Origin: an uncultured Chloroflexia bacterium
GTDB lineage: Bacteria > Chloroflexota > Limnocylindria > Limnocylindrales > CSP1-4
Length of the DNA stretch: 64,000 nucleotides
Reading direction: 5' to 3'
Assembly (NCBI GenBank): GCA_963752475.1
Contig: CAVVYR010000029.1
Span: 178,689-242,688 of the forward strand
In this document: positions 55,648-63,993 of the stretch, in pieces
Numbering within the stretch: position 1 is the first letter of the stretch
Layout of the letters: each line of letters begins with the position of its first letter
Translations under genes and position numbers: made by a program
Notes under the pieces: generated by a model
What the model was told of the DNA's origin: nothing
Databases searched by the model: none
Seen by the model: only the letters and a program-made list of their open reading frames with translations

Positions 55648-56277
55648 GTGGCCTCACGGAACCAGCGGGCGGCCAATGCCTCCTACTACCGACGCAACCG
55701 GACGTTCGAGACACAGCGAGTGCGGATCCGGCAGGATGCGACGCGCGACCATCTGCGCGAACTCCGACGGGTGCCGTGTCGGGACTGCGGTGGCGTCTTC
55801 GAGCCGCACCAGATGGACTTCGACCACCGGGACCCGGCCGCGAAGTCGTTCCGCCTCACCTCCGGTACGGCGATGCTGGCTTCTGGCGGCCGCCTCGATG
55901 CAGAGCTCCACAAGTGCGACATCGTGTGTGCGAACTGCCACCGTGTGCGTACGCGAAGCCGTCGTGGTGCCGCGCCTCGCGCCGACGCATCACCAGAACT
56001 CGAGCGGAAGCGCCGCTACTGGCGCGCACAGATCAAGATGCTCGAGCAACTCAAGGATCGACCATGTGACGACTGCGAGGGCTACTACCCGAGCTGTGCC
56101 ATGGACTTCGACCATCGTGATCCGCGGCAGAAGCGCTACACCGTCAGTCGCATGGTCGGCCGCGCCGGAACCGCGCGGATCCTGGCTGAGGTAGCCAAGT
56201 GCGATATCGTGTGTGCGAACTGCCATCGTGATCGCACATACCGGCGACGCGAGGCGGGTTCCTTCGAGCGGGAGTAG
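55648..56277 (+). CDS. Tandem HNH-like endonuclease domain protein
   Basis: Two copies of PCxDC...MDFDHRDP..K...E..KCDIVCANCHR.RT; TATACT 7 nt before GTG; stop codon inside tRNA. Confidence 0.8.
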   Translation: MASRNQRAANASYYRRNRTFETQRVRIRQDATRDHLRELRRVPCRDCGGVFEPHQMDFDHRDPAAKSFRLTSGTAMLASGGRLDAELHKCDIVCANCHRVRTRSRRGAAPRADASPELERKRRYWRAQIKMLEQLKDRPCDDCEGYYPSCAMDFDHRDPRQKRYTVSRMVGRAGTARILAEVAKCDIVCANCHRDRTYRRREAGSFERE

Positions 56278-56343
56278 CTCAGTTGGTGGAGCGCCAGCCT
56301 TCCAAGCTGGATGTCGCGGGTTCGAATCCCGTCTCCCGCTCCA
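56268..56343 (+). tRNA. tRNA-Gly(TCC)
   Basis: 76-nt cloverleaf: GCGGGAG/CTCCCGC acceptor, CCAGC-CTTCCAA-GCTGG anticodon arm, GGTTCGAATCC T arm, U73, encoded CCA. Confidence 0.97.
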
Positions 56344-56435: not shown

Positions 56436-56840
56436 ATGGAGACGAGGACCGTTGCGGACCCGACAATCGGCAACTACGAGGAACTGGTCGCGTCGTGGCG
56501 CCTCGCTCTGAGGGCTGAGAACAAGTCCCCGAGCACCCTCGTGTCGTACCTCTCGGCAGCCGATGAACTCGGCCGCTACCTCGCGGAACATGGGATGCCG
56601 CGACGGCTCGCCGCTATCCGGCGCGAGCATGTCGAGTCGTGGGTGGCCGACCTTGCGACCCAGCAGTTCTTCCGCTGGGCGGCCGAGGAAGGGGAGATCG
56701 ACGAGTCGCCGATGGCGCGAATGCGACCACCTATCGTGCCCGAGGAGCCTCCGCGGGTCCTCGCCGAGGGCGAGCTCGAGCGGCTGCTCGCGACGACAAA
56801 GGGTCGGGGGTTCGCCACCAGCAGCGGGTCATGCGTCTGA
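56436..56840 (+). pseudogene. Truncated tyrosine recombinase/integrase (core-binding part only)
   Basis: L.AENKSP.T..SY, FFRW..EEGEI..SPM, P.VL...EL..LL; no catalytic R-H-R-Y domain. Confidence 0.8.
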
Positions 56841-56939: not shown

Positions 56940-57959
56940 TCAGTACTCGACGAGCCCTTCGAACACGATCGAGACGGGGTGCGGGATGGTGGGCAGGCCT
57001 TCTTCGTCGTAGCCGGAGTTGGTGACGGTGCCGGTGAAGCTGATCTGCCCGCTGGCCCCTTCGAACTGTCCCGTGCCGCCGGTCACCTCGGCCATCGACA
57101 CGCAGAGCCATTCGGCCCCGACCTCCTCGACCCAGCTCGGGATGCAGTCGCCGGGTCCGGCGACCGTGATGCTGTCCCCGGCGTCGTTGCTGAACGTGGT
57201 CGTCCCGCCGTGCATGTTCGCGAGGACGTCTTCCGGCGCGTAGCAGTTCTGGAAGACCACAGAGGTCGGGCCCAGAAGTGTCGACTCGCCCGTGGCGGTC
57301 ATGACGCTCGTGAAGCCGATCTCACAGCCAGCCGGGTTCTCGAGGTCGGCGACCATCTCGCCCTCGGCACTGCCGACCATGAGCGGGTTCGCGACGGCAT
57401 CGGTCTCTTCCTGCGGCGCCGCCGCGACCTCAGCGCCGGGCGCCTCCGGGAACGGGGGCAGCTCGCCCGGGTAGACCATGCCCTCGAGATCGAAGCCGCT
57501 GCCGTTGTCCAGTTGGAACAGGATAGCTGAGAGGCCTTCGTAGGCACCCTCGCCGGCCAGCTCGCCGAGCAGGTAGATCTGCGCGTCGTTCGCGGTGGTG
57601 TAGCCGCGGAACGTGCCGCGCCAGGAGCCGAGCTCGTTGTCGATGCCGATAAGGCCGGCGACCACGGACCCCTGGCTGTCGAGGTACCTGTCGTCGTTCC
57701 AGATGGCCCAGGACTCTCCGCTGAGGCGTGGGTCACCCGTGTCGATGGTCCCGCCGAAGCCGTAGTCCCGAACGAGCATCCGATCCTCCTCGAAGAAATA
57801 GGGCGTCGGATCGGTCACGACCGGATACGGCATGGTGCCGCTCAGGAGCGCGCTCTCGGTCGTGACCGGAGCATCCGACTGGGCCACCGTCACGGCGGCG
57901 ATGCCGCCGAGCAGGCCAAGGATGAGCGCTCCCGCCATCGAGAGTCGTACGGTACGCAT
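56940..57959 (-). CDS. Secreted two-domain hypothetical protein
   Basis: Signal peptide; DPRLSG...GEGAYEGL domain followed by a 4-Cys GGTGQFEGASG domain. Confidence 0.8.
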   Translation of the reverse strand: MRTVRLSMAGALILGLLGGIAAVTVAQSDAPVTTESALLSGTMPYPVVTDPTPYFFEEDRMLVRDYGFGGTIDTGDPRLSGESWAIWNDDRYLDSQGSVVAGLIGIDNELGSWRGTFRGYTTANDAQIYLLGELAGEGAYEGLSAILFQLDNGSGFDLEGMVYPGELPPFPEAPGAEVAAAPQEETDAVANPLMVGSAEGEMVADLENPAGCEIGFTSVMTATGESTLLGPTSVVFQNCYAPEDVLANMHGGTTTFSNDAGDSITVAGPGDCIPSWVEEVGAEWLCVSMAEVTGGTGQFEGASGQISFTGTVTNSGYDEEGLPTIPHPVSIVFEGLVEY

Positions 57960-57980
57960 GGCGTCTTCCCCCTGTTCGTC

Positions 57981-58057
57981 AGCGGGTCGGGTTCGCCAGT
58001 GGCTCGGCACGACCCAGGCGGCCAACGTACGCGAGTCGTGCCTCGCAGCCTCCCGCT
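57981..58057 (-). ncRNA. c-di-GMP-II-like riboswitch aptamer (variant), copy 1
   Basis: P1 AGCGGG/CCCGCT, P2 GGC/GCC, tandem GA kink-turn, P3 GGCACGACT/GGTCGTGCC, pseudoknot CGCC/GGCG; ends 21 nt before ATG. Confidence 0.75.
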
Positions 58058-58063
58058 ACCTGG

Positions 58064-58154
58064 ATGGGACATCGGACCGGCCCCGGCTTTCCGAAAACAG
58101 TCAGTGAGCCGATCGAGATGGATCGGGAAAGCCGGACGCTTGAGCGTGACCCAT
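58064..58154. promoter_or_regulatory. Pair of divergent ECF-type promoters GGAAAG-N16-G(T/A)CCCAT
   Basis: Minus strand 58092-58064 and plus strand 58126-58154 share GGAAAGCCGG and identical spacing. Confidence 0.6.
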
Positions 58155-58226
58155 ACCATAGAGAGGACCGCGACCAGCGCGGCCCCGTGGTCGGATGCGA
58201 AGACCTCCGGCCCGATGGATGGGGGC

Positions 58227-58790
58227 ATGGACCAGGACTTGGTTGTCCGGGCGCAGCACGGCGACCAGCGGGCCTTCGAGGCCCTGGCGCTTGCCGACAG
58301 CCCTCGCCTGCACCGCGTGGCCTACGGCATCCTGCGTGACTCCGAGTCGGCCGAGGACGCGACCCAGCGAGCCCTCGTCGACATCTGGCGCGACATCGGC
58401 CGCCTCCGCGATCCGGCCAGGTACGAGGCCTGGTCGTACCGGCTCCTCGTCCATGCCTGCTACCGGGAGGCCCGGCAACGGCGTGACCTGCCATGCATCA
58501 CGGACGTCGCCGACGTGCAGGCGCCCGCTGCGGCCGGCGCCTTCCGCCAGGTCGACGACCGCGACCAGCTGGAACGCGGGTTCCGACAGCTTTCGGTGGA
58601 GCATCGGACGGTCATCGTGCTGCGCTGCCTCCTCGACCTGCCGATGGAGCAGGTGGCCGAGGCGCTCGGCGTCGCGCCCGGCACCGTCGGCTCCCGGCTC
58701 CACCGTGCGCTCCGAGCCATGCGAGCGGCCCTGGAGGCCGACGAGCGGACCACGACGAGCCACGGACTGCAGCGCGAGGCGGTCAGATGA
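58227..58790 (+). CDS. ECF RNA polymerase sigma factor
   Basis: GD..AF..L, AEDATQ, region 4 L....R.VI.L......VAEALGV..GTV.SRL.RA. Confidence 0.9.
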   Translation: MDQDLVVRAQHGDQRAFEALALADSPRLHRVAYGILRDSESAEDATQRALVDIWRDIGRLRDPARYEAWSYRLLVHACYREARQRRDLPCITDVADVQAPAAAGAFRQVDDRDQLERGFRQLSVEHRTVIVLRCLLDLPMEQVAEALGVAPGTVGSRLHRALRAMRAALEADERTTTSHGLQREAVR

Positions 58791-60142
58791 ACGACGAACA
58801 GCTGCTGCACGACCTCGGTTCATGGCTGAAGGACACGGACACCGCCCATCCCGACGCCGAACGCATAACGGCGCGGGCGATGAGCCAGGTGCCACAGGTC
58901 CGCCAGCGCGGACGCTGGTGGCCGTTGCCGGCGCTCGATCGCGGGAGCCCGCCTGCGCCTGCCTCGGGGTCGACGGTGTTCTCCGCACTGCGGTTCGTGG
59001 CCGCGGGCATCATCATCGGGCTGTTCGGCGGCTTCCTGCTCGCCAGCGTCCTCACCACGCCGCCGATGGAGCAGGCCCCAGCTGCGGCGACCGACTCACC
59101 CGTCCCCGTGACGACCGAGGAGCTGCTCTCGACCGCGGCGACCGAGGAGATCGAACCCGGGCTCCTGCGGGTCGTCGACGATGGCATCCGGGACCTCGCC
59201 ACGGCCGACACCATCAGCCTCGTCAGTGGGCGGGACGGCAGCATCTGGCTGCTGTCGGAAGACCACCTCCTCCGAGTCGGCGCCGACGGGACGTATGGGT
59301 GGCCATCGGAGCTGGCCGGGCCTGTGAGCGAGTTCGAGGTCGCCCCCGACGGCACTGTCTGGATCGTGGGCGCGGGCGAGGACGGCGTCTCGACGCTTTG
59401 GTCCTTCGAGGGCGCACGGTGGACCCGCCACGGGCCGACCTCGGATACCCGCGCCATCGAGATCGCCGACGACGGCACGATCTGGGCCTTCTGGCAGGAC
59501 CAGGGGTCGGAGACGGTCAGCCTCGGCTACCTCGCCGGCGACGAGCGGCACCCCATCGGGGAGTGGCAGGAGGGTCGGGTGCACGGCGGACACCTCTACC
59601 TGTCCGGGTCGGACGACGTCTGGATCGCCGGAGCCCCGGCGCACCGGGAGGGCAAGCCCGAGCTCTATCGCCTCGTCGATGGGACCCTGCAGCAGGAGTA
59701 CGCAGCTACCGTCGTGGCCGCCGACGTGGGCGCAGATGGTACGGCCTGGTTCGTCTCGCTCGACGAGCTCGTCCGACTGGACGCGGCCGCCGGGGATGCC
59801 GAGCCCGAGTCGTGGGCGCTGCCCGGATCGATGACCGCCGAGTGGGGCAGCATGCCGTGGTGGACGTTCCTGCCCGGCGATGCCTTCAGGGCCGCGCCCA
59901 ACGGCAGCGTCTGGTTCGCGCTGCGGGCCGAGTCCGGGCCGCCCGTCCCGGAGGTGGCCTGTGGCGGGATCGCGGGCTTCGACGGCACGACATGGCTGGG
60001 CCCGTTCCTGCCGGACCGGTGTGTCGAGTCCATCCAGCTGGCCGCCGACGGCTCGGTCTGGCTGCTGGCCCGCGACGCGGAGCATGCCGATGACCTCGTC
60101 GATCTCTTCGTCATCGACCCGGAGGCCGCGGCCGCCGCTTGA
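58787..60142 (+). CDS. Putative anti-sigma factor: short cytoplasmic domain, one TM, extracellular beta-propeller-like domain
   Basis: ATGA overlap with the sigma gene; repeated (A)PDG(T/S)VW blades. Confidence 0.75.
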   Translation: MNDEQLLHDLGSWLKDTDTAHPDAERITARAMSQVPQVRQRGRWWPLPALDRGSPPAPASGSTVFSALRFVAAGIIIGLFGGFLLASVLTTPPMEQAPAAATDSPVPVTTEELLSTAATEEIEPGLLRVVDDGIRDLATADTISLVSGRDGSIWLLSEDHLLRVGADGTYGWPSELAGPVSEFEVAPDGTVWIVGAGEDGVSTLWSFEGARWTRHGPTSDTRAIEIADDGTIWAFWQDQGSETVSLGYLAGDERHPIGEWQEGRVHGGHLYLSGSDDVWIAGAPAHREGKPELYRLVDGTLQQEYAATVVAADVGADGTAWFVSLDELVRLDAAAGDAEPESWALPGSMTAEWGSMPWWTFLPGDAFRAAPNGSVWFALRAESGPPVPEVACGGIAGFDGTTWLGPFLPDRCVESIQLAADGSVWLLARDAEHADDLVDLFVIDPEAAAAA

Positions 60143-60160
60143 CCGGCCGGGGCCCAGTGC

Positions 60161-60709
60161 TCAGGAGCCGACGAGACCCTCGAAGAGCATCATGGCCCGG
60201 ACGTCTCCCGGTGCCGCGTCGGGATGGTCGGACTGGGCGTTGAAGGTGTAGGCGATCGCGTGGATCTCACCGCTCGCACCCTCGAAGACGCCGGTCCCCC
60301 CGGTGATGATGGTCGTGCCCCAGCAGCTGTAGAAGCCACCGGGCTCCGGGACGTCATCAGGGATGCAGTCGCCGCTTGCGGTCCCGGCCAGGGTGTCACC
60401 GCTCTCGAAGGTGTAGGTGATGGTACCGAGCTGGACGTTGTCGAGCGTGTCGGTCGGGACGTAGCAGTTCACCTGCCTGATGGTGATCGCGCCGAGCTGT
60501 GGCGACTCGCCGTAGGCCGTCACCTCGCTGGTCATGCCGATGTCGCAGCCGAGTGGGTTGTCCTCGTTGGGGTGGAGGTAGCCCTCCGCCTCGCCGGAGA
60601 AGTACTGCCGAGCGTCGTCGGCGCCCTCCTGGCCCAGCCCGACGCTCGACGCGCCGAGCAGCAGGATCGCAGTGGCCGTGCCGGTCGCCACCAGCCTGAT
60701 CGCTCGCAT
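60161..60709 (-). CDS. Secreted hypothetical protein, paralog of the C-terminal domain of 56940-57959
   Basis: Signal peptide; shared NP.GC.IG.TS, NCY.P, GDCIP, GGTG.FEGASG.I, FEGLV. Confidence 0.8.
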   Translation of the reverse strand: MRAIRLVATGTATAILLLGASSVGLGQEGADDARQYFSGEAEGYLHPNEDNPLGCDIGMTSEVTAYGESPQLGAITIRQVNCYVPTDTLDNVQLGTITYTFESGDTLAGTASGDCIPDDVPEPGGFYSCWGTTIITGGTGVFEGASGEIHAIAYTFNAQSDHPDAAPGDVRAMMLFEGLVGS

Positions 60710-60729
60710 GCAGTTCCCCCTCGATGCAG

Positions 60730-60805
60730 GCGGGTCGGGTTCGCCAGTGGCTCCCCGCGGCCCAGGCGGCCATCTTCAACGGGCCGCGCGTCGATGCCTC
60801 CCGCT
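60730..60805 (-). ncRNA. c-di-GMP-II-like riboswitch aptamer (variant), copy 2
   Basis: Same core as copy 1 with compensated P3 (CGCGGCCC/GGGCCGCG); ends about 20 nt before ATG. Confidence 0.75.
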
Positions 60806-61165
60806 ACGGCGATTCTCTCGCGGGTGTCCATTGCGATCCGGAACGCCATGGATCGCGGGTCTTGTCTGGTCGTCGCCGCCATGGCGAGCGCCTGATGCCG
60901 TCCCTGCCTCGGTCGGCGGCGGATTCGATCGTCGATGCCGGGAGTGCCTCGACCGGCCGCTACCAGATGCCAGATGAAGCCCCGGGGGGCTCGATCGGGG
61001 GTGCCGGCCGGCGCTCATGCCGCGGGACCTCGATCGACCAACGGCCCGGTCGACCGAGTCACCGGGGGCAGGACCGAGGCGAGGGCACGGGGAACGAGAG
61101 ACGCCTCGCGCCCGTACCACAGCCGACCCCGCCGGTCATCGAGCGGCCACGGCGGCCGTGCCGCA

Positions 61166-61673
61166 TGTGACTCCAGGGTGAGGCGCGCATGATGCGGCCA
61201 TGGACCGAGATCGGACCCTGCCCGAGCGACCGGCACGCCGGACGTTCAGCGCCGAGTACAAGCAATGCATCCTCGATGAGTACGAGGCCGCCACCGAGGA
61301 GGGCGCTATCCTGCGCCGGGAGGGTCTCTGTACCTCGCACATCACCGAGTGGCGCCGGGCCCGTGACGCGGGCGCCCTCGCCGGCCTGGCGCCGAGGCCG
61401 AGACCCCGCGCCAAGTCACCCGAGCAGCGCGAGCTGGTCCGCCAGCGGCGTCGTGCCGAGCGGGCCGAGGCCGAGCTGGCCAAGGCCCGCCTGGTCATCG
61501 ACATCCAAGGAAAAGCATCGGAGCTCTTGGAGCGGCTGCTGGCCGAGAGCGACGAGGACGAGAAGCAGTCGCGGTGATCGACGCCGCGTTCGAGACGCTG
61601 GAGCCGCTGGTGGGTACGTCGGGAGCGTGCGCCGCAGAGCATCGCGCGACCGTGTGTCTCATCGCGCTTGACA
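61166..61673 (+). mobile_element. Internally deleted IS3-family element
   Basis: OrfA present; OrfB reduced to a short N-terminal stub; tentative TG...CA imperfect ends. Confidence 0.6.
61200..61577 (+). CDS. IS3-family transposase OrfA
   Basis: RRTFSAEYK..IL.EY, GAILRREGL..SHI..WRR, coiled coil, VIDIQGKASELL. Confidence 0.8.
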   Translation: MDRDRTLPERPARRTFSAEYKQCILDEYEAATEEGAILRREGLCTSHITEWRRARDAGALAGLAPRPRPRAKSPEQRELVRQRRRAERAEAELAKARLVIDIQGKASELLERLLAESDEDEKQSR

Positions 61674-61763: not shown

Positions 61764-61810
61764 GCCTTCCAAGCTGGATGTCGCGGGTTCGAATCCCGTC
61801 TCCCGCTCCA
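61764..61810 (+). repeat. attR-like copy of the 3' 47 nt of tRNA-Gly
   Basis: Exact match to 56297-56343; lacks the 5' acceptor strand and D arm. Confidence 0.92.
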
Positions 61811-61878: not shown

Positions 61879-63993
61879 ATGCCACGCACGAAGGCCGATC
61901 CCACCGTCGTCCGACCACCATGTCCCGAGCACCCCGGCAGCCGGGTCCGACTGGACGGCTATCGAAACTGCCGCTGGAGCCCAGCGCATCGGCGACCGAG
62001 ATATCGGTGTGTGACCGTGCCGGGCACCCGCGGCCACTCGTTCAGCCTGCCCGTCGCGGTGCGCCAGCCGACCGAGGAGCATCCCGACTCGGGCGCGGGA
62101 TGCCCGACGTGCGACCGCCTGTATGGCCGCGACGAGGGGGTGCCGACCGGCCGTGGCTTCGTGTTCGGACACGCCGAGATCGCCCGCCTCTTCCTGCGGG
62201 TCGGCGAGGGCATGAGCCTGCGCGCCGCGAGCCAGGATCTGCGCGCCGCGGTCCTCCGCTCGGACGGCCCCGACACTAGCCGCCAGGCGAACCTCGCGGT
62301 CGACTACCTCGACGCCTTCGCGCCGGCCATCGTGGACGCCCTCCACCCGACGGCCTGGCCGCGGGTCGTCGTCCTCGACTCGCGGACCCTCTTCACGCGG
62401 AGCTATCGGGCCAGCCGGGCCGCTGGCGACGGCGGACCCGACGAGGCCTGGGTCGCGGAGCAGAAGGCGGGCACGATCCTCGTCGCGCTCGACGGCACGA
62501 GCGTCCGTCCGCGACCCTGCCTCATGCGCGTCGCGGGAGCCAAGGACACCGAGAGCTGGAAGGCGTTGTTCGCCACCCTCACCGGCCGGCCCGACGTGGT
62601 CGTGGCCGATCTCGATGCGGCCATCGCCCGCGCCGTGCGGGAGACCTGGCCGGCCGCGATCCTCGTGCCCTCGCGCCATCATCTCGCAGCGCTCATGCGC
62701 GAGCGGGCCCTCGCCGACGGCGTGCCCGCACGGGCCCGGACCGAGACGCCGCTCCCGCTCCCCCGACCCCTGCCCTGGACCGGCGAGCGCACGAAGCGCT
62801 GGATCGAGCATCCGCTCCACGCGGCGATGCTCGGTGCCCTGCGCGGGCCCGAGGCGTGGGCCGCCTTCGAGGCGCTCGTCGAGCGCCATGTGCCACCCGA
62901 CCGACTGGCGCTGCGAGGCTGGATGGCCACGAACGAGCCGCTCGTCCGCCGCGGCTGGGAGATCGCCGCCCGACATCCCGACCTCCCCCGCTCGACGGGT
63001 TCGCTCGAGGGCGCCATCGGGGAGTGGCTGGCGCCCATCGCCCGGCGCGCCGGGCGCTGGCAGAACGCGCGGCGGCTCGATCTCGTGCTGGCGCTCATGA
63101 CCCTGCGCGCGCGGGGCGAGGCGCGAGAGGCGCGCTATGCCCGCATCGTGCGCGATGCCTTCGCGGTCCACGGCAACCGCTCCCATGTCGCGGAGCCGGC
63201 GTCGTCATCGACCGCGCGGCCGGCGATCGGTTGGTGGCGGACATGGAAGGACCACGGCGAGCCGTCGCTGCCGCGGCTCGTGCGCGAGGCCGACCGTCGC
63301 TGGCGCCGGCGTGCCGTCGATGACCATGCCGCCCGGGTCAAGGAGCGCCTCGCCGAGCGCTACGCCACCGAGGCTGACCTGCGCACCCGGCTCGATCTGC
63401 CCACGCCGCCGTCGGGGCGACCGCGACGAGCACACGCCCGACGGGCGGGTGACTCGGTCCGGGGCCGGCGCCTGTCGGACTACCCCGAGCTCGTGGCCGA
63501 GTGGGCCTGGGACGTCAACGGCGAGCTCGATCCCACGACGCTCGCGGCGGGCTCGGCCGAGCGGGTCGCCTGGCGCTGCCTGCTCGAGCCCGCCCATGTC
63601 TGGGAGACGCGGGTCTCGAGCCGCACCGCCGGGGGCACCGGCTGCCCCTTCCACATGGGCATCCGGGTCCACCCCGCCGAGTCGCTCGCGGCCTTCTTCC
63701 CCTGGCTCGCGCAGGAGTGGCACCCCGAGCGCAACGACCTGCGGCCCGACCAGGTCACCCGGGCCTCGGCACGCAGGGTGGTCTGGCACTGCGAGTCCGG
63801 TCACGAGTGGGAGGCCGCCGTCTACCAGCGGACGCTGTCGGGCTCCGGCTGTCCCGAGTGCTATCGCCGCGAGGCCGATGTTCGTTCGAGGGCCGGGCGG
63901 GCGCGTGCCCGCCGTGCCAAGGACGAGGCCGAGGCCGAGGCCGCCAGGATCATCCGCCTCGGCGAACGCCTCTCGGGTGGCGAGGCCGGCTGA
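61879..63993 (+). CDS. DDE transposase-like protein (IS256/Mutator-like) fused to two DUF4379-type zinc ribbons
   Basis: N-terminal Cys/His finger and HTH (GMSLRAAS); VVVLD167, VVVAD244, SxxH, STGSLE377; two PxLxxEW...N...W.C...H.W...R...GCP repeats. Confidence 0.7.
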   Translation: MPRTKADPTVVRPPCPEHPGSRVRLDGYRNCRWSPAHRRPRYRCVTVPGTRGHSFSLPVAVRQPTEEHPDSGAGCPTCDRLYGRDEGVPTGRGFVFGHAEIARLFLRVGEGMSLRAASQDLRAAVLRSDGPDTSRQANLAVDYLDAFAPAIVDALHPTAWPRVVVLDSRTLFTRSYRASRAAGDGGPDEAWVAEQKAGTILVALDGTSVRPRPCLMRVAGAKDTESWKALFATLTGRPDVVVADLDAAIARAVRETWPAAILVPSRHHLAALMRERALADGVPARARTETPLPLPRPLPWTGERTKRWIEHPLHAAMLGALRGPEAWAAFEALVERHVPPDRLALRGWMATNEPLVRRGWEIAARHPDLPRSTGSLEGAIGEWLAPIARRAGRWQNARRLDLVLALMTLRARGEAREARYARIVRDAFAVHGNRSHVAEPASSSTARPAIGWWRTWKDHGEPSLPRLVREADRRWRRRAVDDHAARVKERLAERYATEADLRTRLDLPTPPSGRPRRAHARRAGDSVRGRRLSDYPELVAEWAWDVNGELDPTTLAAGSAERVAWRCLLEPAHVWETRVSSRTAGGTGCPFHMGIRVHPAESLAAFFPWLAQEWHPERNDLRPDQVTRASARRVVWHCESGHEWEAAVYQRTLSGSGCPECYRREADVRSRAGRARARRAKDEAEAEAARIIRLGERLSGGEAG

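Follow-up and report, generated by a model that had tools for sequence, protein, structure and literature searches.

Two c-di-GMP-II variant leaders with an A-C-G pocket precede genes for secreted-looking proteins in an uncultured Limnocylindrales bacterium

The c-di-GMP-II structural clan of Rfam (CL00127) is laid out as helices P1 and P2, an internal loop, helix P3 and a pseudoknot that ties the loop of P3 to the 3' junction, and the described systems closest to the leaders reported here are the parent family of cyclic di-guanosine monophosphate (c-di-GMP) riboswitches (RF01786) and two variant models, c-di-GMP-II-GAG (RF03169) and c-di-GMP-II-GCG (RF03170). The GCG and GAG variants were reportedly first described by Weinberg et al. 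in PNAS in 2017; our literature search on the variant names returned list mentions only and no ligand report for either of them. In the canonical structure 3Q3Z, A69 reads Gα and G73 reads Gβ of the ligand, and adenine A70 intercalates between its two bases (PMC13715770). Here we analyzed a stretch of 64,000 nucleotides (the window) from contig CAVVYR010000029.1 of an uncultured bacterium of the order Limnocylindrales, phylum Chloroflexota, in which two leaders of this clan precede genes for secreted-looking proteins on the minus strand. Both leaders belong to a catalogued variant class of c-di-GMP-II, and a new RNA class was excluded. The best overall explanation, to which we give a probability of about 75%, is that each is an aptamer leader of the clan controlling translation initiation, with a guanine-containing cyclic dinucleotide as the likely ligand.

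Scanning of the window with the covariance models of 4227 Rfam families (cmscan) placed RF03170 at 58062..57976 of the minus strand (64.0 bits, E 2.1e-9) and again at 60810..60724 of the minus strand (59.8 bits, E 2.1e-8). Both alignments were full length (model positions 1-85 of 85), and both scores exceeded the gathering score of 47.9, well clear of chance. The copies also scored 56.8 and 55.7 bits with RF03169, above its cut-off of 40, while the parent RF01786 reached 46.2 and 42.4 bits, below its cut-off of 53.5. Since the cut-offs of RF03170 and RF03169 were passed and that of RF01786 was missed, the leaders are catalogued variants and not canonical members by Rfam thresholds. The earlier note on this DNA had proposed comparison with these three models and had described a c-di-GMP-II-like aptamer with P1, P2, kink-turn, P3 and pseudoknot; the comparison matched the variant models, and the RF03170 alignments, together with the covariation given below, bore out the full clan layout. 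The new variant class that it implied did not hold, as models for both variants exist and both copies pass them. The parts of the two aptamers were as follows, all on the minus strand.

57982..58056: aptamer copy 1, core bounded by the two strands of P1 (RF03170, 64.0 bits, E 2.1e-9)
58056-58052 with 57986-57982: P1 of copy 1, GCGGG with CCCGC (model alignment)
58051: floor adenine of copy 1, equivalent to A13 (column mapping)
58050-58048 with 58003-58001: P2 of copy 1
58041-58034 with 58014-58007: P3 of copy 1
58020-58017 with 57997-57994: pseudoknot of copy 1, CGCC with GGCG
58000: ceiling adenine of copy 1, equivalent to A61 (column mapping)
57992, 57991 and 57988: pocket columns A69, C70 and G73 of copy 1 (column mapping)
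60730..60804: aptamer copy 2, core (RF03170, 59.8 bits, E 2.1e-8)
60804-60800 with 60734-60730: P1 of copy 2, GCGGG with CCCGC
60799: A13 equivalent of copy 2 (column mapping)
60798-60796 with 60751-60749: P2 of copy 2
60789-60782 with 60762-60755: P3 of copy 2
60768-60765 with 60745-60742: pseudoknot of copy 2, CGCC with GGCG
60748: A61 equivalent of copy 2 (column mapping)
60740, 60739 and 60736: pocket columns A69, C70 and G73 of copy 2 (column mapping)

The two copies were 77% identical over 94 nucleotides (nt), and the motif string reported earlier before both genes fitted both of them. In the cmscan alignments the P3 strands read GCACGACU/GGUCGUGC in copy 1 and GCGCGGCC/GGCCGCGG in copy 2, with A-U replaced by G-C twice (both sides changed) and U-G by C-G once (one side changed), so the compensatory changes described earlier were confirmed as two double-sided and one single-sided; in copy 2, P3 is closed by a G.G mismatch. 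Both copies read ACUGGCGAACCCGA at the 3' junction.

The junction between P2 and P1 was 14 nt long in both copies and in all three Rfam consensus lines (parent AGUgGUGCAACCGg, GAG model AgUGGCGAGACCGa, GCG model AgUGGCGAGCCCGa), and because all lengths are equal its columns map one to one. The parent line agreed in essence with the canonical junction string quoted in the earlier note, and the GAG and GCG lines differed at exactly one column. The letters in the variant names were assigned to A69, A70 and G73 of 3Q3Z by inference from these consensus lines. On this mapping the pocket triple is A-A-G in the parent, G-A-G and G-C-G in the two Rfam variants, and A-C-G in the copies of the window, whose pocket letters are A13, G14-C60, A61, A69, C70 and G73. 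Both guanine readers, A69 and G73, are thus those of the parent and only the intercalating A70 is changed to C, which agrees with the altered pocket claimed before.

Compared with canonical RF01786, the copies have the same architecture and 14-nt junction and keep A13, A61, A69 and G73, but they differ in C70, in the scores below the cut-off and in the pseudoknot, where GUG/CAC of the parent is replaced by the compensated GGCG/CGCC. With RF03169 they share the scaffold, yet two of the three letters differ from its consensus (A69 C70 here, G69 A70 in the model, G73 in both). They agree with RF03170 in the helices and in the GGCG/CGCC pseudoknot, and also in A68, in C at the A70 column (57991, 60739) and in G at the G73 column (57988, 60736); at the first name column they have A (57992 and 60740) and not the conserved G of the model. 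This difference appeared as GGCGAACCCG in the copies against the RF03170 consensus GGCGAGCCCG, with the A69 column blank in the cmscan alignments. The leaders are new members of a known orphan riboswitch kind, with a distinct pocket letter (A-C-G).

The same aptamer recurred across the genome (4.25 Mb in 38 contigs, 88.8% complete), in which RF03170 gave 35 matches, 33 of them above the cut-off. The pocket triple was A-C-G in 31 copies, A-A-G in three and G-C-G in one. All 32 RF01786 matches in the genome coincided with RF03170 loci, so no separate canonical c-di-GMP-II riboswitch was found there. Among the 34 aligned genomic copies, the equivalents of A13, A61 and G73 were invariant (34/34) and those of A69 and C70 were at least 90% conserved.

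A covariance model was built from 34 of these 35 copies and used to align 120 matches (107 distinct sequences) from genomes of the same genus, a sample of the phylum and a few named records of metagenome-assembled genomes. Among the distinct sequences, standard pairs filled 93.2% of the cells, against 27.7-45.0% when the partners were slid, and 17 of the 20 pairs changed on both sides, including two of the four pseudoknot pairs (GC 88 / AU 16 and CG 88 / UA 7). The observed pairing values were reached by none of 500 shuffles. The nested helices were fitted to the model and are favoured by it; the pseudoknot is absent from the model. Within this genome alone, covariation was seen in P3 only, where six of the eight pairs changed on both sides. 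The covariation supports all helices and the pseudoknot, and the leaders are almost certainly functional aptamers of the c-di-GMP-II clan. A reading of the repeated leader as a mobile gene cassette or repeat element was also considered and was rejected, the repeat being a structured aptamer with covariation.

The genes and ribosome-binding regions that follow the two aptamers were located on the minus strand as follows.

56940..57959: CDS 1, coding sequence of a 339-amino-acid (aa) secreted-looking protein, ATG at 57959-57957
57964..57973: Shine-Dalgarno (SD) purine run of copy 1, AGGGGGAAGA, with GGGGG at 57972-57968, starting 8 nt after P1
60161..60709: CDS 2, coding sequence of a 182-aa secreted-looking protein, ATG at 60709-60707
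60714..60721: SD run of copy 2, AGGGGGAA, with GGGGG at 60720-60716, starting 8 nt after P1

No Pfam family matched CDS 1 or CDS 2. The product of CDS 1 has two beta-barrel-type domains, and its C-terminal one is a paralog of the CDS 2 protein (40.5% identity over 148 aa, residues 162-309 in the mature part, E 4.6e-25). The secreted paralogs named in the earlier note were thereby recovered, their signal-peptide-like N-termini resting on a crude rule of our own. By that rule 31 of the 35 leader-led products in the genome have such an N-terminus, many of them starting MRTLRLSL. One family, with a domain of about 150 aa occurring once or twice per protein, accounted for 18 of the 35 products, both genes of the window included. 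In a Pfam scan of 32 leader-led products 27 had no match, and the rest were two SRPBCC proteins, one methyltransferase, one BD-FAE esterase and one DUF5658-like membrane protein. The predicted structure of the CDS 2 protein is an eight-stranded beta-barrel (mean predicted local distance difference test score, pLDDT, 84.6) resembling allene oxide cyclase, dirigent proteins, the AbyU/PloI4 cyclases and the pyocyanin demethylase PodA (Foldseek best E 5.9e-4; VIA-align Z 10-12, root-mean-square deviation 2.8-3.9 Å over 117-135 residues). The protein is thus predicted to be a barrel of the allene-oxide-cyclase, dirigent, AbyU and PodA type, a fold that gives no function. The leaders of the window precede predicted extracellular proteins, like the c-di-GMP-II switches described before surface-protein genes (PMC9481103).

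The riboswitch-led genes lie in dense tandem arrays on contigs C8 (571-593 kb, with 13 leaders within 22 kb), C32 (13.4-15.7 kb) and C14 (0.5-4.9 kb). Of the 35 leaders, 33 have minus-strand orientation within their contigs.

Distribution of the aptamer pointed to two types. RF03170 matched 23 of 24 sampled genomes of the same genus, with 1 to 31 copies each, whereas 16 genomes (about 1 Mb) from another family of the order gave no match. When the phylum was sampled evenly, 27 of the 151 genomes had a match at E <= 1e-5, mostly with 1-7 copies; this tally includes the genome of the window and an unpublished one (G184), which the other analyses left out. The closest protein relative with a name, like the named records that contain this aptamer, came from Chloroflexota metagenome-assembled genomes. 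Among the 107 distinct sequences there were 59 ACG, 17 AAG, 13 GCG and 12 GAG triples and five others. A search of genome contigs with the pattern GAGCCANTGGCGNNNCCG was too loose (at least 121 stretches); among the 80 loci listed, a regular-expression check accepted five aptamers, in five of the loci, and no distribution can be derived from it.

The true G-C-G aptamers examined in the genus were followed by a DUF5658-like membrane open reading frame (ORF) in 10 of 10 cases (nine relatives and this genome), and these ORFs were 77-99 aa as called (Pfam E <= 0.0023, only one of the ten above the curated cut-off). The G-C-G aptamer of this genome is the following.

C8:571463-571549: G-C-G aptamer of this genome; its relatives are loci L038, L039, L205, L210-L213, L215 and L216

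The G-C-G aptamers of the genus also read GGGAAGC and GAGC-AGUGG, and this type, present once per genome, is the one found in the single-copy genomes. Secreted proteins, SRPBCC proteins and methyltransferases follow the A-C-G aptamers; the true G-C-G aptamers have the DUF5658-like targets and not secreted proteins. Two aptamer lineages, distinct in pocket and in targets, are therefore kept in the genus, and the multi-copy lineage of the window is not the one named by the Rfam GCG label. A-A-G sequences with an A-U first P2 pair, from small low-GC genomes, scored as canonical RF01786 (58.5-70.3 bits). Among GAG-type leaders in other Chloroflexota records, the ORF at L048 starts MGLRR, like the ACG-led methyltransferase, and that at L103 starts MEHIEVE, loosely resembling the ACG-led SRPBCC genes, both being N-terminal reads without alignment.

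The anatomy downstream of P1 argued for control of translation. The start codon lay 16-23 nt past P1 in 33 of the 35 copies, with a G-rich SD 4-12 nt past P1 in the same 33, and the two exceptions had spacings of 39 and 40 nt. In the window the distance between the 3' end of P1 and the ATG is 22 nt in copy 1 and 20 nt in copy 2, matching the gap of about 20 nt given in the earlier note. The 3' end of the aptamer abuts the ribosome-binding site, and no terminator-like site was found on the minus strand. Given this SD spacing and the absence of a terminator-like site on that strand, control is likely to act on translation; the translational control claimed before is supported by the anatomy and we regard it as probable. 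An SD-proximal platform of this kind differs from the terminator or ribozyme of canonical c-di-GMP-II. Each element would be a ligand-sensing aptamer that forms the 5' leader in the transcript of one secreted-protein gene. Ligand binding would close the short all-G/C P1 (GCGGG/CCCGC), and the closed helix would take its C-rich 3' strand out of pairing with the G-rich SD and the start region, turning translation ON. Withholding the aptamer nucleotides reduced the mean predicted pairing of the SD (0.54 to 0.39, with a decrease in 27 of the 35 copies) and of the AUG (0.62 to 0.44). In local minimum-free-energy structures, at least three SD nucleotides were paired with the C-runs at the aptamer 3' end in 30 of the 35 copies.

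In many copies (such as C4:69720 and C14:496) GCAUGA after P1 can pair with UCAUGC around the start codon, in a predicted hairpin whose loop contains the SD and which overlaps the two final pairs of P1.

A promoter-like block was found upstream of copy 2.

60812..60830, minus strand: the two parts of this block, TGGAC (60830-60826) and GAGAAT (60817-60812)

The P1 G at 60804 follows 7 nt after the end of this block, and a conserved TGGAC-N8/9-GAGAAT block ends 5-8 nt before P1 in most of the 35 copies; copy 1 (58057) lacks it. Its spacing is unlike that of a standard sigma-70 -35/-10 pair, and a sigma-70 consensus scan of 57900-61000 gave no promoter. The block may be a promoter, in which case the transcript would start at P1.

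Several observations weigh against a translational switch for a guanine-containing cyclic dinucleotide, or against its parts. Both copies fell below the parent cut-off, no ligand for the GAG and GCG variants was found in print, the A-C-G pocket is assigned from sequence, and loss of the intercalating adenine could alter affinity or specificity beyond what sequence can tell. Anti-SD pairing was energetically no more favourable than in controls with the downstream sequence shuffled (mean z +0.47), so that a switching helix was not demonstrable above composition, and full-length minimum-free-energy structures were heterogeneous and blind to the pseudoknot. On the other side, contigs from RNA libraries count towards transcription, though they prove neither transcription nor RNA ends and may reflect DNA carry-over: one (X16), from a relative with 20 differing letters and four gaps, spans aptamer 1 and its ORF (57339-58045), a second from a different study (X15) covers 57811-58006 and bridges aptamer 1 and its ORF, and in others further copies of the aptamer occur, followed on the plus strand by CCCCC, the complement of the SD. 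No RNA-library contig covered the extracytoplasmic function (ECF) sigma genes between the two leaders or copy 2, and such lack of cover is not evidence.

One alternative is the opposite direction of control. In an OFF switch the ligand-bound aptamer, 4-12 nt from the SD, would block the 30S subunit sterically or by tertiary contacts, and the free leader would be translated. The spacing between aptamer and SD is indeed very short and tightly constrained, and the anti-SD pairing that an ON switch requires was not better than composition. The fall in predicted SD and AUG pairing with the aptamer withheld (27 of 35 copies) speaks the other way, as does the P1 5' strand GCGGGAGG, which itself resembles an SD and would vie with the true one for the CCCGC strand, a design that suits an ON switch. 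An OFF switch thus seems the less probable direction, though a credible one. We lean slightly towards ON, and the lean is weak because SD pairing with the C-rich 3' strand was no stronger than in the shuffled controls.

The second alternative concerns the ligand. GEMM-I riboswitches are known in dozens of copies per genome. In that group, according to PMC7266159, few pocket changes on one scaffold give riboswitches of the c-di-GMP-I and of the c-AMP-GMP class different cyclic-dinucleotide specificities and regulons; their fold is unrelated to that of our leaders, for which altered specificity is only a possibility. The A-C-G pocket would then sense another signal, such as 3',3'-cyclic GMP-AMP (cGAMP), another cyclic dinucleotide or a linear product like pGpG, and the 35 leaders would be its regulon. 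This is favoured by the change of A70 to C in 31 of the 35 genomic copies and 59 of the 107 distinct relatives, by the RF01786 scores below the cut-off, and by the link of the G-C-G type to a different gene (DUF5658-like) in 10 of 10 same-genus cases, pocket letters that co-vary with target genes being a usual sign of different specificities. Moreover, the preference of a c-di-GMP-II aptamer among cGAMP isomers is retuned by a single deletion or by swapping a base pair (PMC13715770). However, both guanine readers are kept, and the three A-A-G copies of the genome precede the same kind of secreted-protein genes as the A-C-G copies. On contig C32, the tandem paralogs at C32:14842 and C32:15619, whose proteins are 65% identical, have an ACG and an AAG leader respectively, so position 70 looks exchangeable within one regulon. 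These A-A-G copies and the tandem pair lean against a large specificity change. Domain matches in the genome numbered seven GGDEF, three EAL and one DAC, which counts for c-di-GMP or a close relative; the search for dinucleotide synthases covered GGDEF and DAC. A genome search for c-di-GMP-I (RF01051) gave no match, but neither did its control. We therefore consider altered specificity, and likewise any ligand other than c-di-GMP, rather unlikely.

Most likely, the leaders are translational riboswitches for a guanine-containing cyclic dinucleotide. Because A69 and G73 are kept, only the intercalating A is changed to C and c-di-GMP enzymes are encoded, c-di-GMP is the leading candidate, and it or a close cyclic dinucleotide would be the ligand on somewhat better than even odds.

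An element without small-molecule sensing, either a protein-binding or structural RNA or a passively duplicated cassette of promoter, leader and signal peptide, is very improbable: joint conservation across copies takes in the promoter-like block, the aptamer and also the initial codons (MRTLRLSL...), so part of the conservation is duplication of one module, but every helix and the pseudoknot are maintained by covariation across distant genomes, no unpaired positions are better conserved than the residues that line the ligand pocket in solved c-di-GMP-II structures, and the same aptamer precedes unrelated genes (SRPBCC, methyltransferase, esterase).

Two further genes lie between the two riboswitch-led genes.

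58215-58790, plus strand: ECF-type sigma factor (Sigma70_r2, Sigma70_r4_2)
58787-60142, plus strand: 451-aa membrane protein, likely an anti-sigma factor

The extracytoplasmic part of the anti-sigma candidate shares 29% identity (E 3e-27) with a secreted protein of 399 aa (C8:589664-590860) that has its own riboswitch leader. A tRNA-Gly(TCC) gene lies at 56268-56343, and its 3' part is repeated perfectly over 47 nt (56297-56343 and 61764-61810, 5467 bp downstream). The 5.5 kb bracketed by this direct repeat hold a remnant of an integrase N-terminal (SAM-like) domain (134 aa, 56436-56840, Pfam matches below the cut-off), together with the ECF sigma and anti-sigma genes and the two genes led by riboswitches, and the segment looks like an old integrated island with att-like ends. 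A small helix-turn-helix ORF on the plus strand (61200-61577), placed by our analysis just outside the downstream tRNA repeat, resembles transposase OrfA, and a 704-aa ORF (61879-63993, plus strand) has two DUF4379 treble-clef zinc-finger stretches.

As far as the literature searched goes, the genome and its genus are an unusually rich context for riboswitch variants without a published ligand, with 35 leaders on one scaffold, nearly all before secreted proteins, and a sister aptamer locked to another gene. The natural variation of the pocket within one organism (ACG, AAG and GCG) is a guide to ligand tests, and the material can show how one pocket nucleotide relates to the identity of a regulon. 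It is doubtful, but possible, that A-C-G forms a separate specificity class, distinct from the G-C-G/DUF5658 type and from canonical c-di-GMP-II and sensing a messenger other than c-di-GMP; if so, that messenger would command a secretome of about 30 genes, mostly for small beta-barrel proteins like allene oxide cyclase and dirigent proteins, in Limnocylindria-like Chloroflexota. Our results suggest that an uncultured Chloroflexota lineage places much of its secreted-protein output under one RNA-sensed signal.

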